Shown here in pieces: positions 27,965 to 42,800 of a stretch of DNA of 42,995 nt (position 1 is its first letter; each line of letters begins with the position of its first letter). The notes under the pieces were generated by a model that was given only the letters and a program-made list of their open reading frames with translations, had not been told where the DNA came from and did not search any database. Source of the stretch: Eubacteriales bacterium (GTDB lineage: Bacteria > Bacillota > Clostridia > Oscillospirales > CAG-382); contig JAZSGA010000186.1 in assembly GCA_045532495.1 (NCBI GenBank), positions 1 through 42,995 of the forward strand, written 5' to 3'. A program made the translations under genes and the position numbers.

Positions 27965-30424
27965 TTACTTTTTAAGTCCGAGATCTTCAATGGACATTTC
28001 GCGCATTTTGTACTTAAGTATTTTTCCTGCCGCATTCATCGGAAACTCTTTCACAAACACAAAGTATCGGGGCACTTTATGGCGGGCGATGGAAGCGTTG
28101 CCGTATTCACGCATTTCGTTTTCGTCGGCGGTTTCGCCCTTATGCAGGATTATCCATGCACAACATTCCTCGCCGTACTTTTCGTCGGGCACGCCAACCA
28201 CCTGCACATCACGCACTTTGGGGTTGGTGAGGTAAAACTCCTCGATCTCACGGGGGTAAAGATTTTCGCCGCCGCGGATAATCATATCCTTAAGGCGTCC
28301 CGTAACCTTAAAATATCCGTCGGGGGTACGGCAGCATATATCTCCGCTGTGCAACCAACCGTCGGCATCAATGGTCTGTGCTGTGGCCTCGGGCATTTTG
28401 TAATAACCCTTCATTATGTTGAAGCCGCGTGCCACAAATTCGCCGTTTTCGCCATCGGGAACTTCAAGACCTGTTTCGGGATCAATAACTTTACATTCCA
28501 CACCGGGGAACGGGCTGCCTACGGTTTCAACACGGTGGTCAAGATCCTCGTTTACCTCGCCCATGGTGCATCCGGGGGATGCTTCGGTCTGACCGTAAAC
28601 GGAAATTATTTCTTTCATGTTCATTTCGTCCGCCGCACGGCGCATAAGGTCGGCAGGGCAGTTGGCACCTGCCATAATGCCGGTACGCATATACGAAAAA
28701 TCGGTTTTTGCAAAATCCGCATGTCCAAACATGGCAATAAACATGGTGGGCACACCGTTAAAACAGGTTATGCGCTCGTTGTTTATACATGCCAGCGACG
28801 ATTTGGGTGAAAAATACGGCATGGGCGAAAGTGTGCCGCCGTGGGTCATGGTGGATGTCATGGAAAGCACCATGCCAAAGCAATGGAACATGGGCACCTG
28901 TATCATCATGCGGTCGGCGGTGGAAAGATCCATTCTGTCGCCTATGATTTTGCCGTTGTTTACAATGTTGCGGTGGGTAAGCATAACGCCCTTGGGGAAA
29001 CCCGTTGTGCCCGATGTATACTGCATGTTGCAAACATCGTCGGGTTTAACAAGGGATGCTCTGCGGCGCACTTCCTCGTGGGGGACAAGGGATGCCCGTG
29101 AAAGCATCTGCTCCCATGTAAGACAGCCTGTCATTGAAAATCCCACGGTTACCACGTTGCGCAAAAAGGGCAGATTTTTGGAATAAAGAGCGTCGCCCGG
29201 CTTTGTCTTTTGCAATTCGGGGCAAAGTTCTTCGATAATTTCACGGTAGTTTATATCCTTGCAGTCCTCTATCATAACAAGGGTATGGGTATCGGACTGA
29301 CGGAGCAGATATTCTATTTCGTGTATTTTATAGGCGGTGTTTACCGTTACAAGCACGGCGCCGATTTTTGTGGTTGCCCAAAAGGTAATAAACCACGCAG
29401 GCACATTTGTTGCCCACACAGCCACATGGTCGCCTGCCTTTACGCCCAGCGATATAAGTGCGGCGGCACATTCATCCACATCCCTGCGGAACTCGGCATA
29501 TGTGCGTGTGTAATCCAGCGTTGTGTATTTGAATACGTACTGGTCGGGGTATTTTTCCACCATGGTATCCAACACATCGGAAAATGTTGCATCGATGATA
29601 TCGTACTTTTTCCAGGGGAAAGTACCTGTTTTTGAACGGTTGTAATATGCCTTGTCACGGTCGGTTTTTTTGCGTCCCAGCGAGGCAATGTAATTTGAAA
29701 AGTGGGTAAGAACTATATCCGCATCGTTTATTTCATCGTTCCATGCGGCACATACATAACCGTCAAAATTGAGGGATGAAAGCGCATTTACAAAGGAATC
29801 CACGGGCAAATCGCCTTCGCCTATAAGCACGGTTTTGCCGTCCTTCATATCGCCAAGGCGTACATATTTGATATATGCGCCCAAATTTTTGATGGTGGTT
29901 TCCGCACTTTCGCCTGCGCCGAAGTGGGTACCGCGCACATTCCATGCGGCACCAAGAACCGCCGACGAAAAGTAGTTTATAACCTCGGTAACGTTTTCGG
30001 TTTCGGAAAGCCAGCCCACGGTTTCAAGCAGAATACGCACATCCGCCTTTTCGGCAAGCTTTATTGCCGCCTGAAGCTTTTCGGCAAGCTTATCAAAGGG
30101 CATTTTTTCCTCGGCGCGGACAATTATCTGCTCTATTCCCGCAGAGCCCGCAAGGGTTACATATTTTGCCACTTCATCAACCAAAGCCTCATCCGTGTGC
30201 AGCGAATGTGGATAATGGAGTGCGGAAACGGCAAGCTGACGGTTTATAAGCTTGCGCTTTGAATCCGCTGTGCGGTCGCTGCGCAAAACACTGTCGTAAT
30301 GCTGTTTGCGCTCCTTTATTGCATCGTATATTTCAAAACCTGCGTAACCGTAATCGTAAGCATAGCGGCAGGTATCTATAAATGTGGCACGGGTGACATT
30401 TTTTGTCGAAAAAACCAGCTTCAT
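27965..30424 (-). CDS. Fusion of a degenerate xylose-isomerase-like TIM barrel and an AMP-forming acyl-CoA ligase
   Basis: C-terminal YTSGTTGFPKG, YGQTE, LHSGD, GRLKDMIIRGGEN and GKILK; N-terminal ~255 aa sugar-phosphate isomerase-like; RBS GAGGAGG before ATG at 30424. Confidence 0.85.
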   Translation of the reverse strand: MKLVFSTKNVTRATFIDTCRYAYDYGYAGFEIYDAIKERKQHYDSVLRSDRTADSKRKLINRQLAVSALHYPHSLHTDEALVDEVAKYVTLAGSAGIEQIIVRAEEKMPFDKLAEKLQAAIKLAEKADVRILLETVGWLSETENVTEVINYFSSAVLGAAWNVRGTHFGAGESAETTIKNLGAYIKYVRLGDMKDGKTVLIGEGDLPVDSFVNALSSLNFDGYVCAAWNDEINDADIVLTHFSNYIASLGRKKTDRDKAYYNRSKTGTFPWKKYDIIDATFSDVLDTMVEKYPDQYVFKYTTLDYTRTYAEFRRDVDECAAALISLGVKAGDHVAVWATNVPAWFITFWATTKIGAVLVTVNTAYKIHEIEYLLRQSDTHTLVMIEDCKDINYREIIEELCPELQKTKPGDALYSKNLPFLRNVVTVGFSMTGCLTWEQMLSRASLVPHEEVRRRASLVKPDDVCNMQYTSGTTGFPKGVMLTHRNIVNNGKIIGDRMDLSTADRMMIQVPMFHCFGMVLSMTSTMTHGGTLSPMPYFSPKSSLACINNERITCFNGVPTMFIAMFGHADFAKTDFSYMRTGIMAGANCPADLMRRAADEMNMKEIISVYGQTEASPGCTMGEVNEDLDHRVETVGSPFPGVECKVIDPETGLEVPDGENGEFVARGFNIMKGYYKMPEATAQTIDADGWLHSGDICCRTPDGYFKVTGRLKDMIIRGGENLYPREIEEFYLTNPKVRDVQVVGVPDEKYGEECCAWIILHKGETADENEMREYGNASIARHKVPRYFVFVKEFPMNAAGKILKYKMREMSIEDLGLKK

Positions 30425-30425
30425 T

Positions 30426-31814
30426 TTATTCCTCCTCAAACACTATCTTGTTGAGAGCGTTTATATATGCACGCACGCTTGCCGCCATAATGTCGGTGGA
30501 GCTTCCGTTGCCTGCATAAAGCTTGCCGTTGTTGCGGAGTCTTACAAGAACGGAGCCAAGCGCTTCCTTGCCCTCGGTAACGGCCTGAATCTGGAAATCG
30601 TCCAGCTCGTAATGGTGGCCGATGCACTGTTCGATGGCACGGAACAAAGAATCCACGGGGCCGTCGCCTGTGCTTACACCGCAAAGCATTTCATCGCCGC
30701 AGCGCAGAGTTACCTGTGACATGGAGCTTGTGAGGTTTCCGCAGTTGGTGGTATAGTTTTCAAGATGATATGTGGAAGGAGCCTGCATTGCAAAGCTGGC
30801 AATAAGGGATTCAAATTCCTTTGCACCCACGGAGCCCTTCTTTTCGCATACCTGCATAAGAGCCTTGTATACGTTGCCGCAATCCTCATCGGAAAGGTCA
30901 TAGCCCAGCACATTTGCCGCCTGGGCAACCTGGGAAATGGTGCTTTCGGAATCAAGCAGTATCTTTTTGCGCTCGCTTACCTGAGCGGCGGTTTCGTATG
31001 CCTGATGGTTTATGCCTGCCAGCATATCCTCAACGCTTGCATGTATTTTTGTGTTTTGAAGTCCTGTGCAGATGCCCAAAACATCGCCGCGGGCGGTAAC
31101 CGCATCGGAAAATTTGCCCACAGAAAGAGCTTCGTTTCCTGCCATGGCGCATTTTATACCTTCTGCACCTGCGGAAATTGCCGCCAGAGCACATGCAACT
31201 GCCATGCCCAGCTTATCGGAAACCTGAACGTAAACGGACACATCCACCGCTTGCTTTACACATTTTACAAGCTGTGCCAGCTCCTCGGGAAGGGCTGTGC
31301 CTGCGGTATCGCAAAGGGTTATCATGCCTGCACCGTTATCTGCCGCCTGCTTTACCGCCGCAACGATAAAATCGGTATCGGCGCGGGTGGCATCCTGCGC
31401 ACAGAATTCCACGTCGTTGCAAAGTGCTTTTGCGGCGGCGCAAAGCTCGCCTATTTTTGCCGCCATTTTATCGGCTTTCATGTGGTAGGTATATTCCATC
31501 TGAACGGTGGAAACAGGCACTTCGATCTGAAGACGGGGATTTGCCGCATCCTTTATGCAGTCCCAGGCATCGCCAACGCCTGCCACATCAAAGCCCACGG
31601 GAACTGCCACGGTGCAATTTGCAAGATTCTGAGCTATTGTTTTGTATATTATGGTATCCTCACGCAGGTTTTTAATGGGCGCAAGCTCCACGGCATCGGC
31701 ACCAAGGGATGCCGCGCAGGAAGCGATGGCAGTTTTTTCACGGAACAGCAAAGAAACTTCACGCTGAGCCGCCAGTGTTTTAAGTGTGATGTCGGTGATG
31801 TTGATTCTTTTCAT
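30426..31814 (-). CDS. LeuA (2-isopropylmalate synthase)-like protein with degenerate active site and intact allosteric domain
   Basis: Aligns by eye with LeuA (VEF..QDATR, DTAG, GDGPVD, STDIMAAS) but lacks the RDGEQ, HxH and GERAGN motifs; RBS GGAGG. Confidence 0.8.
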   Translation of the reverse strand: MKRINITDITLKTLAAQREVSLLFREKTAIASCAASLGADAVELAPIKNLREDTIIYKTIAQNLANCTVAVPVGFDVAGVGDAWDCIKDAANPRLQIEVPVSTVQMEYTYHMKADKMAAKIGELCAAAKALCNDVEFCAQDATRADTDFIVAAVKQAADNGAGMITLCDTAGTALPEELAQLVKCVKQAVDVSVYVQVSDKLGMAVACALAAISAGAEGIKCAMAGNEALSVGKFSDAVTARGDVLGICTGLQNTKIHASVEDMLAGINHQAYETAAQVSERKKILLDSESTISQVAQAANVLGYDLSDEDCGNVYKALMQVCEKKGSVGAKEFESLIASFAMQAPSTYHLENYTTNCGNLTSSMSQVTLRCGDEMLCGVSTGDGPVDSLFRAIEQCIGHHYELDDFQIQAVTEGKEALGSVLVRLRNNGKLYAGNGSSTDIMAASVRAYINALNKIVFEEE

Positions 31815-31889: not shown

Positions 31890-32160
31890 TAAAAAAAACG
31901 CCCCCGTCTCATTGAAAACCAAAGAGACGAAAGCGTAAAAAGCAAAACTTCCGCGGTACCACTCTTCTTCACCAAAAAGGTGCACTTTGATGCAAACACA
32001 TCTTAACTCTGTTACGGGAGTACCCGTCTGCCCCTACTGGAGAAAATTCACGGCAGCCGCTCCGCGGTGAGTTCTGTAAAATTCCGCCCACTGCCTTGCA
32101 GCAACCGGCAGCTCTCTGAATGGGGGAAAAGCACATACTATTCCGCATCATTGCGTTTGT
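31890..32160 (-). ncRNA. Leu T-box riboswitch
   Basis: AGAGAG and GCTG stem-I motifs, specifier GAA-CTC (CTC at 32069-32071), T-box AGAGTGGTACCGCG (31952-31965), terminator ending GAGACGGGGGCGTTTTTTTT. Confidence 0.9.
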
Positions 32161-32179: not shown

Positions 32180-32208
32180 ATTATAGCACGCAAAAACCCG
32201 TTTGTCAA
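32180..32208 (-). promoter_or_regulatory. sigma-A promoter of Leu T-box operon
   Basis: Perfect TTGACA-N17-TATAAT with TG extension. Confidence 0.9.
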
Positions 32209-32317: not shown

Positions 32318-32710
32318 ATGTTTCAGCTTGATCTTGGCGATCACCGTCCAATTTATGAGCAGATCAAAGAAAAGCTCAAATTTCTTATCATCGGCGGAAG
32401 CCTTTCCGACGGCGATAAAATTCCATCGGTGCGTGAGCTTGCCGTAAGCATGGCAATAAACCCCAACACCATCCAAAAAGCTTACAAGGAGCTGGAAAGC
32501 GAGGGTTACATACACTCGCAAAAGGCAAAAGGCTATTTTGTTTCGCCACGAAGCGAGGCCGAAAAGTCGGATACCGGTGAGCTTATGGCACGCTTTACCG
32601 ATGCATCCCGCGAGCTTATGTATATGGGCAAAACCTACGCCGAGCTTTGCGGAATTCTTGAGCAGATTTACAAAGGAGGTAACAGTAATGGAAATGACAA
32701 CGCAGAATGA
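32318..32710 (+). CDS. GntR family regulator, YtrA subfamily
   Basis: PIYEQI, IPSVRELA, INPNTIQKAYKELE; 130 aa; precedes an ABC transporter. Confidence 0.9.
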   Translation: MFQLDLGDHRPIYEQIKEKLKFLIIGGSLSDGDKIPSVRELAVSMAINPNTIQKAYKELESEGYIHSQKAKGYFVSPRSEAEKSDTGELMARFTDASRELMYMGKTYAELCGILEQIYKGGNSNGNDNAE

Positions 32711-33626
32711 CACCATGATAAGTGCCGTAAACGTGACCAAAACCTTTGATGGTTTCCGTGCGCTGGATAACTTAAGCCTTAACGTAAAAAAAGGCTCGGT
32801 TTACGGTCTTGTGGGGCCAAACGGTGCAGGCAAAACCACCTTTATAAAAGCCCTTATGGGCGTTTACCGTGCCGACAGCGGCGAAATGATGCTTGACGGC
32901 AAGGTTATTTACGAAAACGAGCAGGTAAAAAGCCGCATGATATATGTTTGCGACGACTTGTTTTTTTACCCCACCTATACCATAGAGCAAACAGCAAAAA
33001 TGTATGCGGATATTTACCCCAAATGGAGCTGGGAGCTTTTTAACAAGCTGCACGAAATATATAAAATGGATCTTAAGCGCAAGGTCATACGCCTTTCAAA
33101 GGGTATGCAAAAGCAGGTGGCTTTTTGGCTCGGAATATCTGCCCAGCCCGATGTTATGATACTGGATGAGCCCATTGACGGACTTGACCCGGTAATGCGC
33201 CGCAACACATGGCGCCTTGTGCTTAATGAGGTGGCAGAGCGTGGCATGACAGTGCTTATTTCCAGCCACAACCTGCGCGAGCTTGAGGATGTATGCGACC
33301 ACGTGGGCATAATGTTTGGCGGAAAAATGGTTATAGAAAAATCGCTGGACGATGTAAAAGGCAATATCCATAAAATTCAGCTTGCCTTTGAAAAAGGCGG
33401 CAGCGACGAAAAGCTTGCGCAGCTTGAAGCAAAGCTTGATATACTTCACACAGGCCGTATGGGCAGCGTTGCAAGCCTTATTGTAAAAGGCGATATCGAC
33501 GAGGTGCGCAGGGTTATTACGGAATATTCGCCCGTGGTATTTGATATAATTCCGCTTACGCTTGAGGAAGTGTTTATTTACGAACTGGGAGGTATGGGTT
33601 ATGAGTTTGAAAACATCCTTATCTGA
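32688..33626 (+). CDS. ABC-2 type transporter ATP-binding protein (YtrB-like)
   Basis: GPNGAGKTT, LSKGM, ILDEP, SSH; RBS AAGGAGG before ATG at 32688. Confidence 0.9.
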   Translation: MEMTTQNDTMISAVNVTKTFDGFRALDNLSLNVKKGSVYGLVGPNGAGKTTFIKALMGVYRADSGEMMLDGKVIYENEQVKSRMIYVCDDLFFYPTYTIEQTAKMYADIYPKWSWELFNKLHEIYKMDLKRKVIRLSKGMQKQVAFWLGISAQPDVMILDEPIDGLDPVMRRNTWRLVLNEVAERGMTVLISSHNLRELEDVCDHVGIMFGGKMVIEKSLDDVKGNIHKIQLAFEKGGSDEKLAQLEAKLDILHTGRMGSVASLIVKGDIDEVRRVITEYSPVVFDIIPLTLEEVFIYELGGMGYEFENILI

Positions 33627-35697
33627 AAAGCCCGTTTCACGTGCTCTTATAAAATCCGATCTGCGCAACCACTGGCCATGGCCCGTTGTGGCGTTTGTTA
33701 TAATGCTTTTAAACTTCATGGCGGCAACGGATTCTTATTACCGCATGGATATTGTAAAAGTAACACGCTTTACAAACGATTTTACCTTCACATATTTTGC
33801 AATGTGCGTTTACGGTCTTTTTGTGGGCACAAAGCTGTTTATGTATTTGGATAAAATAAACTCCGTTTCATGCATGCACGGCCTGCCTTTTTCAAGGCTT
33901 AAGCTTTATCTTTCCCACATTTGCTCCGGCTGTATTCTTATGTTTGCACCAGCCGTTGCAACATCGCTTATAATCCTTGTTTCACGCACGGTGCCCGCAG
34001 AATATGCCTTTATGTTTTTGGTTTCCTGCATTATTTATGCATCCATGGCATTTGCCGTGGCGGTATTTGCCATGACAGTATGCGGAAACATGGTGGTTTC
34101 CGTACTGTTTTCGCTGGCCATTGCCATTTTCCCTGCGGCAATACTTGCTTTTTCCGTATATATTTGCAATATGAATCTTTACGGCTATGCGGAGCCCGAG
34201 CTGCTTGAGCAGATAATGTATTTTCTTTATGTTATGCCCGATAAGCTGTTCCCATGGCGGTTTGCCATATATCTTGTGGCGTCGCTGGGCTTCCTTGCGG
34301 CAGGCTATGCCGTTTACCGTGTACGTCCGTTGGAAAACTGCGAGGAGGTTGTGGCTTTCAAAAAACTGCGCCCCATGTTTATTTACGCCGTGGGCCTGGT
34401 TACGGGTATGATAAGCTACTTTTTCTTCTGCAGCATACTTGACGGCACATCCGTTATGTATATGCTGCCCCTGGGACTTGTGGGTGTTGTAGCCGCAGTT
34501 ATGATAGCACGCAAAACCGTATCGCTTAAAGGTTCGGGGCGCCATGTTATAATATACACCGCCGCAGTTACAGCTATTATGCTGTGCATGCAGTATGATA
34601 TAACAGGTTACGAAACCCGTGTGCCCGATGCCGATAAAATAGCGTATGCCGAAATCAACGGCGGCATAGGTTCAGGCTCCCGTTATTACCGCGATTTTGA
34701 ATTCAGATACGATTCTCTGCCCGAAAACCGCCTCACCGAGCTTAATGAGCTGGAGGCTCTTACTCAGCTGCACGCAGCATACGCATCCGAGCATGACAGA
34801 ATCCACCTGCACACCAACAGCATTTTCGGAATGTATAACCGTGATAATATTGAGATCACATACAAGCTCAAAAACGGCACGGTGATGAAGCGCCGTTACG
34901 ACGGACTTTCCGTGGAAAACTTTGACAAATACATGCTTCCCTTCCTCAACCTTGAAAAGGTAAAATCGTGGCAGTATCCTCTTATCGACAGCACCGCCAA
35001 GGAAATACTTTCCGCCGCAGTATATGACAGCAGAATCCAGAATGCGGCAAAAGGCTTTGAGGCAGCGGATGCCGTTATACTTTACGATGCATTGTGTGCC
35101 GATATCCGCTCTTTGCCCGTGGATAAACTTTATTCAAGGGGCAAAATAACCGTTGATATCGAGTATTATGTGCCCGGTACCATAATTGCAACGGGCATAC
35201 GTCCCAAAGGCATGCAGCAAAAACGCGCATACGGTACGGAAACAAGTATAAAGATCAACGAAAACTATACCCACACCCTGGCGGCACTAAAAAGGCTGGG
35301 CTACGATATAACAAATCCCAAAGATTTTGAAAAAGTAAAATCGGCGGTGGTTTCGAATATAACGGAAAACGAACAGTATTATTATGACAGTGTTATCGTT
35401 GAGGAAACCACATCCTTCCCCATGGCTGCGGTTACCGAGGAATATGTAAAATATGCCGATGAATACGGTAAGGATTATACCGTTGTTACCGACAGAGCCG
35501 ACCTTGAAAAGCTTTATGATCTTTGCGGAAAAGGCTTTATGGGCAACGCGCAAGTGGAGGATTTTGAAAAGCTTGAGGTTTATATCATATCTCTCCGCGA
35601 TGAAAACGATAAGGAAATTTTCGGCAGCGAATTTGTTGTTATCCACGATAAACTTCCGCAAACGCTGAAAAAATATTTCCTGCAGCCGCAGAAATAA
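33601..35697 (+). CDS. ABC transporter permease with large C-terminal soluble domain
   Basis: Multiple TM segments in the N-terminal half, HGLPFSR motif; RBS GGAGG before ATG at 33601. Confidence 0.75.
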   Translation: MSLKTSLSEKPVSRALIKSDLRNHWPWPVVAFVIMLLNFMAATDSYYRMDIVKVTRFTNDFTFTYFAMCVYGLFVGTKLFMYLDKINSVSCMHGLPFSRLKLYLSHICSGCILMFAPAVATSLIILVSRTVPAEYAFMFLVSCIIYASMAFAVAVFAMTVCGNMVVSVLFSLAIAIFPAAILAFSVYICNMNLYGYAEPELLEQIMYFLYVMPDKLFPWRFAIYLVASLGFLAAGYAVYRVRPLENCEEVVAFKKLRPMFIYAVGLVTGMISYFFFCSILDGTSVMYMLPLGLVGVVAAVMIARKTVSLKGSGRHVIIYTAAVTAIMLCMQYDITGYETRVPDADKIAYAEINGGIGSGSRYYRDFEFRYDSLPENRLTELNELEALTQLHAAYASEHDRIHLHTNSIFGMYNRDNIEITYKLKNGTVMKRRYDGLSVENFDKYMLPFLNLEKVKSWQYPLIDSTAKEILSAAVYDSRIQNAAKGFEAADAVILYDALCADIRSLPVDKLYSRGKITVDIEYYVPGTIIATGIRPKGMQQKRAYGTETSIKINENYTHTLAALKRLGYDITNPKDFEKVKSAVVSNITENEQYYYDSVIVEETTSFPMAAVTEEYVKYADEYGKDYTVVTDRADLEKLYDLCGKGFMGNAQVEDFEKLEVYIISLRDENDKEIFGSEFVVIHDKLPQTLKKYFLQPQK

Positions 35698-36101: not shown

Positions 36102-36125
36102 ATAATTTAATCGGAGGAATTGAAA

Positions 36126-37196
36126 ATGCTTGACATTAAAATCCAGAAGAATCCCGCGCCCAAGGCAAAGCCTGCGGACGAAACAAAGCTTGGCTTCGGC
36201 AAAGTGTTTACCGACCACATGTTTATTATGAACTACACCGAAGGCACCGGCTGGCACGATGCACGCATCGTTCCCTACGCACCCATAAGCCTTGAACCTT
36301 CCGCAATGGTTTTCCATTACGGTCAGGAAATGTTTGAAGGCCTTAAGGCTTACCGCGGAAAGGACGGCAAAAGCCGCCTGTTCCGCCCCGACATGAACGC
36401 AAAGCGTGCAAACGAATCCAACCGCCGTCTTTGCATCCCGGAGATCCCCGAAGAAGATTTTGTTCAGGCAATAAAAGCCCTTGTTAAAGTTGACGAGGAC
36501 TGGATCCCCACAGCAGAGGGCACATCCCTTTATATCCGTCCCTTTGTTATTGCAACCGATGAATTTTTGGGTGTTGCTCCTTCAAAAACCTACCTTTTTA
36601 TTATAATACTTTCTCCCAGCGGAGCATACTACGCTTCCGGCCTTGCACCCGTTGGTATTTGGATCGAAGACGAATACGTGCGTGCGGTTAAGGGCGGTAT
36701 CGGCTACGCAAAAACCGGCGGCAACTATGCAGCCAGCCTTAAGGCTCAGGTTAAGGCGCATGATGACGGCTATTCCCAGGTGCTTTGGCTTGACGGTGTT
36801 GAAAGAAAGTACATTGAAGAAGTTGGCGCAATGAACATCTTCTTCAAGATCGACGGAAAAATCGTAACCCCCATGCTCAACGGCAGCATACTTCCCGGTA
36901 TAACACGCAACTCGGTTATTCACCTTTGCAAATCCTGGGGTATGGAAGTTGAAGAACGCAGAATCTCTGTTGACGAGCTTATCGAAGCCCAAAACAACGG
37001 CAAGCTTGAAGAATGTTTCGGCACAGGTACAGCCGCAGTTATATCCCCCGTTGGCAAGCTCCGTTACAAGGACGAGGTTATGACCATCGGCGATGGCGGC
37101 ATCGGAACCACCAGCCAGAAGATATACGATACCGTAACAGGAATTCAGTGGGGCACCTCCGAAGACAAGTTCGGCTGGTCTGTTGTTGTTGAATAA
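36126..37196 (+). CDS. ilvE: Branched-chain amino acid aminotransferase
   Basis: FGKVFTDHM, HYGQEMFEGLKAY, KTGGNY, EEVGAMN, LPGITR, GTGTAAVISP; GGAGG 8 nt before ATG at 36126. Confidence 0.95.
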   Translation: MLDIKIQKNPAPKAKPADETKLGFGKVFTDHMFIMNYTEGTGWHDARIVPYAPISLEPSAMVFHYGQEMFEGLKAYRGKDGKSRLFRPDMNAKRANESNRRLCIPEIPEEDFVQAIKALVKVDEDWIPTAEGTSLYIRPFVIATDEFLGVAPSKTYLFIIILSPSGAYYASGLAPVGIWIEDEYVRAVKGGIGYAKTGGNYAASLKAQVKAHDDGYSQVLWLDGVERKYIEEVGAMNIFFKIDGKIVTPMLNGSILPGITRNSVIHLCKSWGMEVEERRISVDELIEAQNNGKLEECFGTGTAAVISPVGKLRYKDEVMTIGDGGIGTTSQKIYDTVTGIQWGTSEDKFGWSVVVE

Positions 37197-37864
37197 TGAA
37201 GCGCATAACAATTTTTGCCGGCCATTACGGCAGCGGCAAAACCAATGTGGCTGTAAATTATGCCCTGGGCATTGCGGGCGAGGGCAAAAAGGTTTCACTT
37301 TCCGACCTTGACATTGTAAACCCCTACTTCCGCTCCAAGGACAGCGAAAAGCTGCTGCGTGATGCAGGCATACGCTTTATATCGTCGGAATACGCAAACT
37401 CCAATGTGGATGTGCCGGCACTTCCGCCGGAAGCATATGCCGTAACCGCCGATAAAACCGCCTTTGCCGTGGTGGATGTGGGCGGCGATGACAGGGGCGC
37501 TTTGGCGCTGGGCAGATACGTGCCCGATATCCTTGCCGAAAACAGCTACGAAATGCTTTTTGTTATAAACAAATTCCGTCCGCTTACACGGGATGCGGCA
37601 AGCACCGTGGAGGTAATGCGTGAGATCGAGCAGGCGGCAAAAATAAAATTTACCGGCATAGTAAACAACTCAAACCTTGGTGATGAAACCACGGCAGATG
37701 ATGTTATCGCATCGTTGGATTATGCGGAACAAGTTTCCGCCGCCACAGGGTTGCCCATAAAATTTACTTCCGTTCATCACACTCTTGCGCCGCAGCTTGA
37801 CGGAAAAATTCCGGATATATTCCCCATAAAGCTGTATATACGTCAGTCCTGGGGAACCGTTTAA
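37196..37864 (+). CDS. Uncharacterised P-loop NTPase (MinD/ParA/CobQ-like)
   Basis: GHYGSGKT, DLDIVNPYFRS, DVGGDDRGA; TAATG overlap with ilvE. Confidence 0.75.
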   Translation: MKRITIFAGHYGSGKTNVAVNYALGIAGEGKKVSLSDLDIVNPYFRSKDSEKLLRDAGIRFISSEYANSNVDVPALPPEAYAVTADKTAFAVVDVGGDDRGALALGRYVPDILAENSYEMLFVINKFRPLTRDAASTVEVMREIEQAAKIKFTGIVNNSNLGDETTADDVIASLDYAEQVSAATGLPIKFTSVHHTLAPQLDGKIPDIFPIKLYIRQSWGTV

Positions 37865-37895
37865 AAAGTTATTATTACCGAAAGGAACAATAATT

Positions 37896-38099
37896 ATGGC
37901 AAAAGTTACATTTAACGAGGATCTTTGCAAAGGCTGCGGTCTTTGCGTGGGTGCTTGTCCCAAAAAAATTGTAAAGCTTAAAACCGAAATCAACATCAAG
38001 GGTTACAACCCTGCCCATGTTGAAGATCAATCCGCATGTATAGGCTGCGCTTTCTGCGCCACCATGTGCCCCGACTGTGTTATAACAGTTGAAAAGTAA
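37896..38099 (+). CDS. 2[4Fe-4S] ferredoxin-like delta subunit of 2-oxoacid:ferredoxin oxidoreductase
   Basis: CKGCGLCVGACP and CIGCAFCATMCP. Confidence 0.9.
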   Translation: MAKVTFNEDLCKGCGLCVGACPKKIVKLKTEINIKGYNPAHVEDQSACIGCAFCATMCPDCVITVEK

Positions 38100-38117
38100 T
38101 CCAAGGAGGAACATAAA

Positions 38118-39185
38118 ATGTCAGATAAAGTCTTGATGAAGGGCAACGAAGCCCTTGCGGAAGCTGCCATTATGGCAGGCTGCCGCCATTATTTCGGTTA
38201 TCCCATTACTCCCCAAACCGAAGTTGCGGCTTACATGGCCAAGAGAATGCCCAAAATTGACGGCGTTTTCCTTCAGGCAGAAAGTGAAATTGCCGCTATC
38301 AATATGGTTATAGGCGTTGCCGCCACCGGCAAACGCGTTATGACATCCAGCTCATCCCCCGGAATTTCGCTTAAGAGCGAAGGTATTTCCTACCTTGCAG
38401 GCTGCGATCTGCCTGCTCTTATCGTAAACGTACAGCGAGGCGGCCCCGGTCTTGGCGGCATCCAGCCTTCTCAGGCAGATTACTTCCAGGCAACCCGCGG
38501 CGCAGGCCACGGCGATTTCCATTTGCTTGTACTTGCACCTGCTTCTGTTCAGGAAATGGTAAATCTGGTGTTCAAGGGCTTTGACCTTGCCGAAAAATAC
38601 AGAATGCCTGCCATGATCCTTTCCGACGGTACCATGGGACAAATGATGGAACCCGTAAGCCTTGATACGCTTCCCATCAACGAATATGATAAATCCTGGG
38701 CTCTTACCGGTACAAAGTGCCAGCGCAAGCCCAACATTATAAACTCCCTTTGCCTTAAGGCAGAAGAGCTTGAACGCTTAAACATTGAGCGTTACCAGCG
38801 TTACGCCGAGGTGGAAAAGAACGAAGTAATGTACGAAGAATATCGCATGGAAGATGCCGAAATATGCATCGTTGCCTTTGGTGTTGCGGCGCGTGTTTCG
38901 CAGAATGCCATCGATAAGGCACGCGAGCAGGGCATAAAAGTGGGCATGATCCGTCCCATTACCCTGTGGCCTTTCCCCAAAAAGGCGCTTTGCGATGCGG
39001 CAGATAAAGTTAAATCCTTTATTTCCGTTGAGCTTTCCATGGGCCAGATGGTAGAAGATATTGAACTGGCTATCCGCTGCAAAAAGCCCGTTACCCTTTG
39101 CTCCAGAGTGGGCGGTATGATTCCCTCCACCGAAGATGTTCTTGCAAAGATTTACGAGGCAAATTCCACAGGAGGTAACAACTGA
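38118..39185 (+). CDS. vorB: Branched-chain 2-oxoacid:ferredoxin oxidoreductase alpha subunit (VorB-type)
   Basis: MKGNEALAEAA, YPITPQ, QAESE, SSSSPG, RGGPGLG. Confidence 0.88.
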   Translation: MSDKVLMKGNEALAEAAIMAGCRHYFGYPITPQTEVAAYMAKRMPKIDGVFLQAESEIAAINMVIGVAATGKRVMTSSSSPGISLKSEGISYLAGCDLPALIVNVQRGGPGLGGIQPSQADYFQATRGAGHGDFHLLVLAPASVQEMVNLVFKGFDLAEKYRMPAMILSDGTMGQMMEPVSLDTLPINEYDKSWALTGTKCQRKPNIINSLCLKAEELERLNIERYQRYAEVEKNEVMYEEYRMEDAEICIVAFGVAARVSQNAIDKAREQGIKVGMIRPITLWPFPKKALCDAADKVKSFISVELSMGQMVEDIELAIRCKKPVTLCSRVGGMIPSTEDVLAKIYEANSTGGNN

Positions 39186-39943
39186 TGACAACTGTATTTA
39201 AAAAACCCGAGGCTCTTACCGATGCACCGCTTCATTATTGCCCCGGCTGTACCCACGGTATTATTCACAGACTTGTTGCCGAAGCCATTGACGAGCTGGG
39301 CATAAGAGGCAGAACCTTTGGTGTTGCTTCTGTCGGCTGCTCGGTATTTACTTACAACTACTTTAACTGCGATATGGTTCAGGCGGCTCACGGCCGTGCA
39401 CCCGCAGTTGCCACCGGCGTTAAAAGATCCGATCCCCAAAACAACATCGTATTTACATATCAGGGTGACGGCGACCTTGCCGCCATCGGTACCGCCGAAA
39501 CAGTTCATTCCGCTGCCCGCGGCGAAAACATTACCGTTATTTTCGTTAACAACGCAATTTACGGTATGACAGGCGGTCAGATGGCACCCACCACGCTTCC
39601 CGGTCAGGTTACACAAACATCTCCTTACGGCCGTGATGTAAACACCGTTGGTTACCCCGTTAAGGTTTGCGAAATGCTTTCCAAGGTGGACGGTGCCACA
39701 TACCTTGAACGTGTTGCCGTTAATAACGTTAAAAACGTGCGTGCCGCAAAGGCTGCCATTAAAAAGGCTTTCCAGAATCAGATCGAAGGCAAGGGCTTCT
39801 CTTTGGTAGAAGTACTTTCCACCTGCCCCACCAACTGGGGTATGACTCCCGATAAAGCCCTTAACTGGCTTGAAGAAAACATGATTCCTTATTACCCCTT
39901 AGGCGTATACAAGGACAAGTACGCAGAAAGCGAGGTAAAATAA
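39185..39943 (+). CDS. 2-oxoacid:ferredoxin oxidoreductase beta (TPP-binding) subunit
   Basis: HYCPGCTHG, HGRA, QGDGD...NN, YGMTGGQ, CPTNWG. Confidence 0.9.
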   Translation: MTTVFKKPEALTDAPLHYCPGCTHGIIHRLVAEAIDELGIRGRTFGVASVGCSVFTYNYFNCDMVQAAHGRAPAVATGVKRSDPQNNIVFTYQGDGDLAAIGTAETVHSAARGENITVIFVNNAIYGMTGGQMAPTTLPGQVTQTSPYGRDVNTVGYPVKVCEMLSKVDGATYLERVAVNNVKNVRAAKAAIKKAFQNQIEGKGFSLVEVLSTCPTNWGMTPDKALNWLEENMIPYYPLGVYKDKYAESEVK

Positions 39944-39944
39944 G

Positions 39945-40481
39945 ATGACAACTCAAATACTTTTTGCAGGCTTTGGCGGCCAGGGTATTCTTTTCTCGGG
40001 AAAATTCTTGGCATACGAGGGCTTGCTTGCCGATAAAGAAGTAAGCTGGCTTCCCTCATACGGCCCCGAAATGCGCGGCGGTACAGCCAACTGCAGCGTA
40101 ATTATAAGCGATACAAAGATCGGCTCTCCCATCGTTACCGAGCCCGATGTACTTATCGCCATGAACCTGCCCTCCCTTGACAAATACGAGGGCGACACAG
40201 CAAAGGGCGGCAAAATTTTTGTTGACAGCTCGCTTATTTCCAAAAAGGTTGAAAGAACCGACGTTGAAGCATATTATATTCCTGCCACAGCGTTAGCGTC
40301 CGAAAGCGGACTTACAGGCCTTGCAAATATGATCATGCTGGGCTACATTATCAAAAAAACCGGCATTATGCCCATCGAAAACATCGACAGAGCTCTGGCA
40401 AAGGTGGTTTCTGCAAGAAAACAGGATCTTCTCGGCGCCAACAAAAAGGCTCTTGAGCTGGGTTATAACTACGCCGAATAA
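39945..40481 (+). CDS. 2-oxoacid:ferredoxin oxidoreductase gamma subunit
   Basis: [27 protein letters not shown]. Confidence 0.9.
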
Positions 40482-40517
40482 TTTATATTAAAAAAATACT
40501 TATGGAGGAACTTTACG

Positions 40518-41072
40518 ATGAATGATCAGCTTAAAGATATAGGCATGCGTCTTGCCTGCATCCGTGAGGACTGTGAAATGACCGATGTACAATTGGCCGA
40601 AAAGCTGGGTGTTGATATTGACACCTATCGCTCATATGAAAAAGGAGAGATCGATTTTTCGTTCAGCTTTGTTTACAATGCTGCCGAAATTCTCGGCGTG
40701 GATGTGCTTGATATTATAAGCGGATCTTCTCCCACTCTCTCCACCTGTTGTATGGTTAAAAAAGGCAGAGGCTATTCTGTTAAACGCGAGGAAGACTACG
40801 ATTACAAGCACCTGGCGTACACCTTTAAAAACAAAAAGTCCGAGCCTTTCCTTGTAACCATCACCCCCGAAGAAAAAGCTCCCGTGCTCCACGGCCACGA
40901 AGGACAGGAGTTTAACTACATCCTTGAAGGAAAAATTACCTTCTACATTGGTGAAATTTGCTACGAGCTTGAAGAGGGCGACAGTGTTTATTTTGATTCC
41001 ACCGTGCCCCACGCCATTAAAACCACCGACGATAACCCTGCAAAATTTATTGCAGTGGTGGTTAAAAACTAA
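40518..41072 (+). CDS. XRE-family HTH regulator with C-terminal cupin domain
   Basis: N-terminal HTH (YEKGE), HEGQEFNYILEG and GDSVYFDSTVPH. Confidence 0.9.
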   Translation: MNDQLKDIGMRLACIREDCEMTDVQLAEKLGVDIDTYRSYEKGEIDFSFSFVYNAAEILGVDVLDIISGSSPTLSTCCMVKKGRGYSVKREEDYDYKHLAYTFKNKKSEPFLVTITPEEKAPVLHGHEGQEFNYILEGKITFYIGEICYELEEGDSVYFDSTVPHAIKTTDDNPAKFIAVVVKN

Positions 41073-41105
41073 AATTTCCACTTACTGAAAGAAGGTACAA
41101 TTCCA

Positions 41106-42800
41106 ATGGCAATATACGAAAAATTTGTGGGCGCCAGCCGTGACGATTTCCTTTCGCTCAAGGATGCCCAGAAAAACTACAAACTCACCTGGAACGAGGA
41201 TTTTAACTTCGCCTATGACGTTATGGACGAGCTTGCCCGTACAAAACCCGATAAGCTTGCCATGCTTTGGGTTTCCCGCGAGGGCGAAGAAAAACGCTTT
41301 ACGTTCCACGATATGATGATATACTCCAACAAGGTGGCAAATTATCTGCGCTACCTGGGTGTTAAAAAAGGCGATAAGGTTTTGCTTGTTATGAAGCGCA
41401 GCCACTATTTTTGGCACACCGTTATGGCATTGCATAAAATCGGTGCCGTTATGGTGCAGGCAACCTTTATGCTTACCCCCAAGGAATACGTTTACCGCTG
41501 TAACAAGGCAGGCATAAAATATGCCATCCTCACCGGCGACGGCAACTGCACCGAGCAGTTTGACGAGCGTGCGGACGAATACGAAACAGTAGTAAAAAAG
41601 ATGGTTCTCGGCCACAAAAAGGCAGAGGGCTGGCTGGATTTTGAGGACGGTGTTGCCACCGCCAGCGATGAATGGACAAGACCCACCGGCAAGGATGCCA
41701 TCTATGCCAACGACACATCCATCCTTGGCTTTACATCCGGCACAAACGGTTACCCCAAAATGGTTTTCCATGATTTCCGCTACCCCTTGGGCCACATCAT
41801 GACAGGTGTTTTTTGGCACCGTGTTGTGGACGGCGGTTTGCATTTTACAATTTCCGATACCGGCTGGCTTAAATCGCTGTGGGGCAAAATGTACGGTCAG
41901 TGGTTTGGTGAATCCGCCGTGCTGGTTTACGATTTTGATAAGTTTGATGCGCAGGATATTCTTTCCAAGCTGGAAAAATACAAGGTTACCACCTTCTGCG
42001 TACCCCCCACAATGTACCGTCTGCTTTTGCAGCAGGATGTAAAGAGCTATGATCTTTCATCGCTCACCCATTGCTGTACTGCAGGTGAGGCGCTTAATCC
42101 CGAAATTTTCAACAAATGGAAGGAAGCCACAGGCCTTGAGCTTTATGAGGGCTTCGGTCAGACCGAAACCACCCTTTGCGTTGCCACCATCTACCCCTGG
42201 ACAAAGCCCGTTCCCGGTGCCATGGGCCTGCCCGTGCCCGGTTTTGATGTACATATCCTGGGTGATGACGGCGAAAACGTGCCCCACGGTACCAACGGCG
42301 AGATCTGCATACGCACATTAAGCTCCGACAGACACCCCTGCGGCCTTATGCGCTCCTACAACGAAAGCGCAGAGGATACCGACAGAGCAATTTATCAGGG
42401 CTACTACCACACAGGTGACGTGGCATACCGTGATGAATTCGGTCTTTACCGCTACATCGGCAGAAACGATGACGTTATCAAGTCCAGCGGCTACCGCATA
42501 AGCCCGTTTGAAATCGAAAGCGTTATGCTTGAGCACCCTGCGGTGTTTGAGGTTGCGGTTACAGGCGTTCCCGATCCCGTGCGCGGCTTTGCCGTTAAGG
42601 CAACAGTTGCTCTTGCCGAAGGCTATGAGGGCAGCGATGAGCTTACCAAGGAGCTGCAGACCTACGTTAAAAAGAATACCGCTCCCTATAAATACCCCCG
42701 CGTTATCGAATACGTTAAGGCGTTGCCCAAAACATTTAACGGCAAAATCCGCCGTGTTGAAATACGTAACAGCGATCAGCAGAAGTACGAAAATAAATAA
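41106..42800 (+). CDS. AMP-forming short/medium-chain acyl-CoA synthetase (ACSM/MACS-like)
   Basis: FNFAYDV, FTSGTNGYPKMV, SDTGW, GFGQTET, YHTGD, IKSSGYRI, PYKYPR, GKIRR. Confidence 0.9.
   Translation: MAIYEKFVGASRDDFLSLKDAQKNYKLTWNEDFNFAYDVMDELARTKPDKLAMLWVSREGEEKRFTFHDMMIYSNKVANYLRYLGVKKGDKVLLVMKRSHYFWHTVMALHKIGAVMVQATFMLTPKEYVYRCNKAGIKYAILTGDGNCTEQFDERADEYETVVKKMVLGHKKAEGWLDFEDGVATASDEWTRPTGKDAIYANDTSILGFTSGTNGYPKMVFHDFRYPLGHIMTGVFWHRVVDGGLHFTISDTGWLKSLWGKMYGQWFGESAVLVYDFDKFDAQDILSKLEKYKVTTFCVPPTMYRLLLQQDVKSYDLSSLTHCCTAGEALNPEIFNKWKEATGLELYEGFGQTETTLCVATIYPWTKPVPGAMGLPVPGFDVHILGDDGENVPHGTNGEICIRTLSSDRHPCGLMRSYNESAEDTDRAIYQGYYHTGDVAYRDEFGLYRYIGRNDDVIKSSGYRISPFEIESVMLEHPAVFEVAVTGVPDPVRGFAVKATVALAEGYEGSDELTKELQTYVKKNTAPYKYPRVIEYVKALPKTFNGKIRRVEIRNSDQQKYENK

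Follow-up and report, generated by a model that had tools for sequence, protein, structure and literature searches.

A LeuA homologue stripped of its catalytic motifs, encoded with an acyl-CoA ligase behind a leucine T-box, as a possible leucine-sensing subunit in gut and rumen Clostridia

Why would a bacterium keep, intact and under selection, a gene for a leucine-biosynthetic enzyme that can no longer be expected to catalyze its reaction? The question is raised by contig JAZSGA010000186.1 of an Eubacteriales bacterium (assembly GCA_045532495.1; GTDB lineage Clostridia, Oscillospirales, CAG-382), whose 42,995 nucleotides were analyzed as a whole and are called the window in the following. Its minus strand carries an open reading frame (ORF) for a protein resembling LeuA, the isopropylmalate synthase, and next to it the gene of an AMP-forming acyl-CoA ligase (Table 1). 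Judged from its sequence, the LeuA-like protein is a catalytically dead LeuA homologue under purifying selection, and its family is not decaying. We put the chances at about even that it serves as a leucine-sensing regulatory subunit of the ligase, which would itself be an isovalerate-CoA ligase acting in the isovalerate-carboxylation route to leucine.

The LeuA-like frame runs without interruption from an ATG at 31814-31812 to a TAA at 30428-30426, with a GGAGG box (31828-31824) located 9 nt 5' of the start codon. Pfam analysis assigned residues 4 to 227 to the HMGL-like family (PF00682, 97 bits versus a cut-off of 29) and residues 331 to 457 to LeuA_dimer (PF08502, 108 bits versus a gathering score of 24.9). 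For the comparison of motifs, the solved LeuA barrels 3ewb and 3rmj and two intact LeuA representatives, P0247 and P0258, were used. In the alignment with intact LeuA, DITLKTLAA stands at the place of DTTLRDGEQ and QVSDK at the place of HCHND; GER of the GERAGN region lies within a 6-residue deletion that leaves AGN alone, and the HEAGIH/HSSGVH segment (HxxGIH, subdomain I) lies within a gap of about 33 residues in the alignment with P0247 and P0258. The protein has retained GDGPVD, VTEGKEALG, and STDIMAAS, each aligned with its counterpart in intact LeuA. The first-pass annotation, made from the letters alone, had described an uninterrupted 462-aa frame with a strong ribosome-binding site, the two replaced motifs, the missing HESGIH segment, and the conserved C-terminal motifs, all of which were borne out here; its reading of GERAGN as GNEALS was an error of register, GNEALS being aligned with GNAALE just past the motif. 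It had also expected automated pipelines to mistake the gene for leuA, which is not supported by NCBIfam or by cluster names: all NCBIfam LeuA equivalogs match the protein, but each scores less than half its cut-off (NF002086, the best, 253 bits versus 532; TIGR00973, 237 versus 599), and of the 120 homologue clusters listed, only 4 have a name from their source, which is "hypothetical protein" each time. The NCBIfam LeuA models cover residues 281 to 461, whereas the CimA models match the barrel only, and the regulatory domain is, by profile and motif, of the LeuA type.

AlphaFold2 modeled the protein as an eight-stranded barrel with a C-terminal domain of the beta-beta-beta-alpha type (predicted local distance difference test [pLDDT], 90.7), featuring a low-confidence, disordered linker at residues 271 to 282. 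The best fold matches of this model in the PDB were MAM synthase, Mycobacterium tuberculosis LeuA (including the leucine-bound structure 3fig), and the isopropylmalate synthase (IPMS) of Neisseria meningitidis; the Foldseek match to 3ewb has a root mean square deviation of 1.7 over 275 columns.

The losses are a property of a large family. A word-indexed search gave at least 120 clusters at 71 to 99% identity among the matches listed, nearly all 461 to 462 aa long, and an exhaustive profile-free search gave 279 cluster representatives at E ≤1e-30; the catalytic-motif losses are common to more than 100 clusters at 50% identity. When 111 full-length representatives were aligned, all relatives of about 455 to 480 aa, down to about 26 to 33% identity, were found to be without the catalytic motifs and to have kept the C-terminal ones, the full LeuA motif set being restricted to the approximately 505-aa P0247 and P0258, with few sequences intermediate. 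Specifically, an alignment of 86 family members contains no instance of RDGxQ, HxHxD, GERxGN, or HxSGIH, and the replacing residues vary from member to member. Across the regulatory domains of the family, GDGPxD and STDIxxAS show little or no variation, and 26 columns of this domain are invariant across 22 sequences falling to 36% identity. An in-frame stop was seen in the LeuA-like gene at 1 of 100 fetched loci, the frame being open at the other 99, and the length was 461 to 463 aa in all 74 complete LeuA-like genes of the close clade. Median ratios of nonsynonymous to synonymous substitution (dN/dS, calculated according to Nei-Gojobori for 82 pairs with dS <1) were 0.11 for the barrel, 0.10 for the linker, and 0.04 for the regulatory domain, values that are rough, since dS is near saturation, though far below 1. 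The earlier view of a LeuA pseudoenzyme is supported, the gene being kept under purifying selection.

The partner gene encodes a xylose-isomerase-like TIM barrel followed by the ligase domains (PF00501, 315 bits; PF13193, 58 bits), in which TSGTTGFPKG, YGQTE, and the C-terminal GK are invariant in the alignment. Its best NCBIfam model is that of a fatty-acid-CoA ligase family (NF009233, 676 bits, below the cut-off of 832). Translation may start at a TTG at 30439, yielding 824 aa and overlapping the LeuA-like stop by 14 nt, or at an ATG at 30424, 1 nt past that stop, yielding 819 aa; the ATG is the more likely start because homologues begin with MK(I/L)xFST at the equivalent methionine. Gene order was followed at 80 close loci, taken from species genomes and many of them short, and at 20 distant loci taken from a class-wide sample. 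The ligase gene lies directly 3' of the LeuA-like gene at 76 of the close loci, at the remaining 4 of which the sequence ends within the LeuA-like gene or at most 131 nt past it, and at all 20 distant loci, where the LeuA-like protein is just 30 to 47% identical. The coupled ligase postulated in the first-pass annotation is therefore real: it is the next gene on the same strand, with its Shine-Dalgarno box inside the 3' end of the LeuA-like gene. Such translational coupling points to synthesis of both proteins in a constant ratio. A search for proteins of more than 810 aa revealed no fusion of the two and gave only pyruvate carboxylase, which is weak evidence.

The operon has a 390-nt leader containing the only Rfam match of the window, a T-box, whose specifier was read from the cmscan alignment as CUC (Leu), followed by the conserved A. 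Many leu genes of Firmicutes lie behind a Leu T-box. The terminator-like hairpin that overlaps its 3' end was not listed by the terminator scan, its loop exceeding the length which that scan permits. T-boxes were also found at 26 of 30 close-clade loci scanned (specifiers 23 CUC, 2 CUG, and 1 CCC), directly before the LeuA-like gene at 4 of 20 distant loci scanned (all CUC), and directly before the ligase at 7 of 14 loci scanned of stand-alone ligases, i.e., ligases from genomes without the LeuA-like gene (all CUC). Overall, a leucine codon (CUC or CUG) occupies the specifier position in 36 of the 37 T-boxes preceding this ligase family and in 25 of the 26 of the close clade; the switch between CUC and CUG, as read from the alignments, is synonymous, as expected of a specifier. 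The Leu-specific T-box much strengthens the leucine link of the operon, and the Leu specifiers predict that the ligase is induced by leucine starvation across the class, with or without its partner. Other ligases have T-boxes as well: MbcS-like ligases at two loci, with AUC (Ile) and GUA (Val), and a further ligase with UAC (Tyr) (T-boxes at L124:3156-3396, minus strand; L132:3720-3979, plus strand; and L130:10987-11231, plus strand). The operon may thus belong to a broader set of ligases that salvage acids, each for a particular amino acid. A different RNA motif, TwoAYGGAY (RF01731, 52.8 bits), was found at the locus of a stand-alone ligase (L139:2319-2477, minus strand).

The carriers of the LeuA-like gene are metagenome-assembled genomes of gut and rumen Clostridia. 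The window's genome, which is 80% complete, contains no KARI_N or ILVD_EDD match (ilvC, ilvD) and no LeuA_dimer match besides the 30426-31814 ORF, so that leuA was not found; neither were leuB or leuCD, there being one Iso_dh and one full aconitase only. These two adjoin an intact HMGL-like gene on contig C157 (approximately 36361-41394; loci L002, L005, and L150), whose 462-aa product features TDTTMRDGQQ, HGHND, and GERTGN and is without LeuA_dimer. The cluster looks like a citrate-to-2-oxoglutarate branch, presumably of the Re-citrate-synthase type. Among 10 carrier genomes of 97 to 100% completeness, a true ketol-acid reductoisomerase (KARI) was found in one (G065); KARI_N matches of 19 to 35 bits in carriers were rejected as ilvC, being partial Rossmann-type matches in frames of 277 to 481 aa. 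In a comparison of 399 Clostridia genomes, with at most four candidates scored per genome, 76 of 79 carriers had no other LeuA-type match at E ≤1e-20, whereas 127 of 320 non-carriers had one. The LeuA-like protein of the window is 73 to 77% identical to those of other families of the class and 40 to 42% identical to those of the carriers of its own order (G093, G150, and G308), a pattern suggesting either horizontal transfer of the gene pair or a binning or taxonomy problem.

On the plus strand of the window, the operon is accompanied by genes fitting the conversion of an acyl-CoA to an amino acid, namely, ilvE and a three-subunit 2-oxoacid:ferredoxin oxidoreductase (VOR), followed by the gene of a second, MbcS-like ligase (Table 1). 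The alpha subunit of the oxidoreductase exceeded the cut-off of the VorB model (NF005507, 540 bits versus 399), and the beta and gamma subunits matched 2-oxoacid oxidoreductase models below their cut-offs. The gene of a P-loop NTPase is translationally coupled to ilvE and lies 5' of the oxidoreductase genes here and in many related loci. In the vicinity of the gene pair, VorA was found at 7 of the 80 close and 8 of the 20 distant loci, ilvE at 4 and 10, the XRE-cupin regulator at 25 and 2, and the MbcS-like ligase at 26 and 5, respectively. Between the LeuA-like operon and ilvE, genes for a GntR regulator, an ATP-binding cassette (ABC) ATPase, and a 711-aa membrane protein without a Pfam match (32318-35697, plus strand) diverge from the T-box promoter region; their adjacency to the pair is not conserved elsewhere.

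Table 1. Features of the LeuA-like operon and its neighborhood (positions in the window)
Feature	Position	Strand	Basis or remark
Promoter-like site, TTGACA-17-TATAAT with TG	32180..32208	-	12/12 hexamer matches; consensus match only
T-box leader (RF00230), Leu specifier CUC (GAA-CUC-A)	31920..32160	-	cmscan 121.6 bits vs gathering score 93
Terminator-like hairpin CGTCTC...GAGACG + T-run, overlapping 3' end of T-box	31891..31929	-	read by eye
LeuA-like pseudoenzyme CDS (P0001), 462 aa	30426..31814	-	intact ORF, Pfam, alignment, model
Degenerate DRE-TIM (HMGL-like) barrel, residues 1-260	31035..31814	-	metal and catalytic motifs lost; pLDDT >90
LeuA_dimer regulatory domain, residues 331-462	30429..30824	-	Pfam E 4e-31; most conserved part
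GAGGAGG Shine-Dalgarno box of ligase	30431..30437	-	in last Glu codons of LeuA-like gene: ...GAGGAGGAATAAAATG...
Partner gene, xylose-isomerase-like TIM barrel + AMP-forming acyl-CoA ligase	27965..30439	-	AP_endonuc_2, AMP-binding, AMP-binding_C
ilvE, branched-chain amino acid aminotransferase	36120..37196	+	NF009897 509 bits vs cut-off 307
P-loop NTPase, 222 aa (CbiA/ParA-like)	37196..37864	+	CbiA 25.5 bits, no NCBIfam model
Three-subunit 2-oxoacid:ferredoxin oxidoreductase	38118..40481	+	alpha 38118-39185, beta 39185-39943, gamma 39945-40481
XRE-cupin regulator	40518-41072	+	HTH_3 + Cupin_2
Second acyl-CoA ligase, MbcS-like	41106-42800	+	NF047394 MbcS 410 bits, below cut-off 850

In the mechanism that we propose, a single transcript would supply the dead LeuA and the ligase in fixed proportion and, given the Leu T-box, would be read through only when uncharged tRNA-Leu is present. 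The ligase would convert isovalerate to isovaleryl-CoA, the VorB-type ferredoxin oxidoreductase would reductively carboxylate the latter to 2-oxoisocaproate, and IlvE would transaminate 2-oxoisocaproate to leucine. Bound to the ligase, the dead LeuA would damp it when leucine fills the regulatory domain; the substrate, the physical complex, the binding of leucine, and the sign of the regulation are all proposed parts of this scheme. Control would then act in two layers, T-box and end-product feedback, as in ordinary leuA, restored after the isopropylmalate pathway had been lost. More tentatively, and with a confidence somewhat short of even, we suggest how this may have arisen: an ancestor losing the isopropylmalate pathway would have kept LeuA, stripped of catalysis and exapted as the leucine sensor of an isovalerate-CoA ligase, leaving a route governed by both tRNA-Leu charging and free leucine, and the ligases behind Ile, Val, and Tyr T-boxes would mark a general, amino-acid-specific salvage of fermentation acids to amino acids.

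The physical complex was addressed by structure prediction with the full LeuA-like protein and ligase residues 287 to 824. The median ipSAE was 0.47 (runs 0.47, 0.28, and 0.59), which the procedure rates as weak support, the best control reaching 0.01, with contacts agreeing to at least 78% and a partner pLDDT of at least 81; the mark applied is passed by 116 of 157 solved complexes and by 2 of 215 mismatched pairs.

Several observations weigh against the proposed role. Scores of at most 0.60 were seen in just 18 of the 157 solved complexes and in both passing mismatches, and the run at 0.28 is under the mark; no interface was reported for the complex. Isovalerate is a putative substrate of the ligase, whose best family model is generic and under the cut-off. 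As to leucine binding, the sole solved regulatory domain matched by sequence is that of LiCMS (3f6g, E 4e-5). In M. tuberculosis LeuA, His379 and Tyr410 of the HxxGIH-bearing subdomain are described as required for transmission of the leucine signal (PMC9860122); the canonical path of this signal would thus be missing here, since that subdomain is deleted. One close-clade T-box (L108:1192-1435), 1 of the 37, reads CCC, a proline codon, reflecting either a genuine change or a fault in assembly. Relatedness confounds the comparisons of presence and absence. Canonical LeuA-type genes are found alongside the LeuA-like gene in 3 of the 79 carriers, all of one genus, and ilvC is present in carrier G065.

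The ligase is also more widespread than its partner: in the 399 sampled genomes, a match to the ligase barrel domain, in frames of about 840 to 880 aa, occurs in 203, versus 79 with the LeuA-like gene, and 14 of 14 examined ligases from genomes without that gene have none upstream. Compared with the ligase of the window, these 14 are 64 to 70% identical in the AMP domain and 29 to 34% in the barrel, which makes them as similar to it as the distant associated clade is. Orthologous ligases hence occur without the LeuA-like gene, and the partner appears dispensable for ligase function as such. The idea that the stand-alone enzymes form a distant paralogous family was rejected, their AMP-domain identity being that of orthologues. 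In a midpoint-rooted FastTree phylogeny, the 50 partner-associated ligases form one clade, a monophyly resting on 13 true outgroup sequences, the "stand-alone" L138 entry having been a wrong ORF (833 aa). Only 12 ligase positions are specific to this clade; most are conservative, and they are scattered through every domain, so that no interface is indicated by them. A second copy of the ligase occurs in one genome, where it follows an 88-aa frame matching just regulatory-domain residues 374 to 461 (64% identity; G057:C27:58631-59727), which may be a truncated partner.

The foremost alternative, which we regard as unlikely though by no means negligible, is that the ligase of this clade requires the dead LeuA as a structural or activating subunit, i.e., a scaffold, stabilizer, or assembly factor, whose regulatory domain dimerizes without responding to leucine. 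The strict coupling of the genes, the weak support from complex prediction, and the deletion of the signal-transmitting LeuA subdomain all fit such a role. In addition, the barrel of the ligase (residues approximately 1 to 262) displays E, N, R, and A in the window's close clade at positions occupied by E, D, H, and E in all 30 other sequences of the alignment; its nearest solved relatives are Art22, MJ1311, AsbF, IolI, and tagatose 3-epimerase, and we take the four positions to be metal ligands of this barrel family. The three changed positions belong to the motifs WD.H, H.KD, and EW. With three of four putative metal ligands lost, a compensating partner is conceivable, and the operon would carry two degenerate TIM barrels. 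The distant associated clade, however, has an intact-looking ligase barrel and yet keeps the partner, and no part of the dead LeuA is under tighter constraint than the regulatory domain, as judged from dN/dS and invariant columns, seemingly beyond the needs of dimerization.

Less probable than a structural role, in our estimate, is a barrel that has acquired a new function, such as binding 2-oxoisocaproate, CoA, or an acyl-CoA, or performing a metal-independent step tied to the product of the ligase. Purifying selection acts on the barrel as well, and D8, T10, E43, P100, S102, E107, Y108, K113, D141, R144, and D169 are invariant or nearly so, several of them being placed by the model at the C-terminal ends of strands 1, 2, 4, 5, and 6, on the old active-site face. 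Most of these residues are, however, also conserved in ordinary LeuA and may be structural; every member has lost the two metal histidines, the Asp of RD, and the GER loop, with variable replacements, and neither Pfam and NCBIfam nor the fold search gave a family or structure match pointing to another chemistry.

Slightly less probable again is a leucine sensor that is merely cotranscribed with the ligase and acts on another target, such as the ferredoxin oxidoreductase, a transporter, or gene expression. The retained regulatory domain and the leucine control of the operon would suit this equally, and the complex-prediction median is just 0.47; but no gene other than that of the ligase is always adjacent, the oxidoreductase and ilvE being near the pair in a minority of loci, and the translational coupling with the ligase suggests a fixed proportion. 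Finally, a leuA pseudogene decaying after loss of the isopropylmalate pathway, as the lost catalytic motifs and the absence of leuB, leuCD, and ilvCD from the incomplete genome might have indicated, is refuted by the open frames, low dN/dS, constant length, and size of the family and by the gene's own Shine-Dalgarno box and upstream T-box.

A dead LeuA that senses leucine on behalf of the ligase would, if true, provide genes for a physiologically known, sixty-year-old leucine route, including a candidate for its activating enzyme, and a clear bacterial case of a pseudoenzyme in which a biosynthetic enzyme has come to serve another enzyme as its feedback sensor. Ruminant feed is supplemented with branched-chain volatile fatty acids; genomes would then predict the bacteria able to turn these acids into amino acids and the throttling of this step by leucine. 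For annotation, the family concerned comprises more than 100 clusters at 50% identity, bearing the name "hypothetical protein" where they are named at all. In the literature searched, with subscription journals mostly outside the search, no description of the family or of an isovalerate ligase controlled by a Leu T-box was found.

Among the closest known systems is the short bacterial form of LeuA itself (NF002086/TIGR00973; 3ewb, 3rmj, and 1sr9/3fig), which has the same order of barrel, helical linker, and LeuA_dimer domain and shares GDGPxD, TEGxEAxG, and STDIxxAS with the LeuA-like protein. The latter differs in being without the RD of DTTLRDGEQ, HxH, GER, and the HxxGIH subdomain and is about 45 aa shorter; its gene is without a leuBCD context and is paired with an acyl-CoA ligase instead.

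Another such system is the isovalerate-carboxylation route of rumen bacteria, which Allison and co-workers reportedly described in the 1960s as a carboxylation of isovalerate to leucine. The gene set of the window fits this route (acid-CoA ligase, 2-oxoacid:ferredoxin oxidoreductase, and aminotransferase), and the carriers are gut and rumen Clostridia genomes mostly without the de novo pathway, whereas the classical work was physiological. To our knowledge, neither a ligase gene nor a device for feedback is on record for the route, and none was found in the literature searched. Leucine formation via isovalerate carboxylation, together with analogous routes to valine and isoleucine, is treated as known rumen physiology in PMC7356843.

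MbcS of Staphylococcus aureus, the best model of the window's second ligase, is an example of a ligase dedicated to branched short acids; it takes 2-methylbutyrate and isobutyrate but uses isovalerate poorly, and it feeds fatty-acid synthesis (PMC10026030). The poor use of isovalerate leaves room for a separate isovalerate ligase. The LeuA-coupled ligase differs from MbcS in belonging to another ANL subfamily (NF009233-like) and in its extra N-terminal barrel.

In regulatory design, there would be a likeness to HisZ, a catalytically dead paralogue of histidyl-tRNA synthetase that acts as regulatory subunit of the short-form ATP phosphoribosyltransferase HisG (PMC9734150 and PMC10795190). Fold and partner are different, HisZ is an activator, and complex formation and ligand binding of the LeuA-like protein are putative; by analogy, in both cases a dead paralogue from the same amino-acid system would serve an unrelated catalytic partner and place it under the control of the end product.

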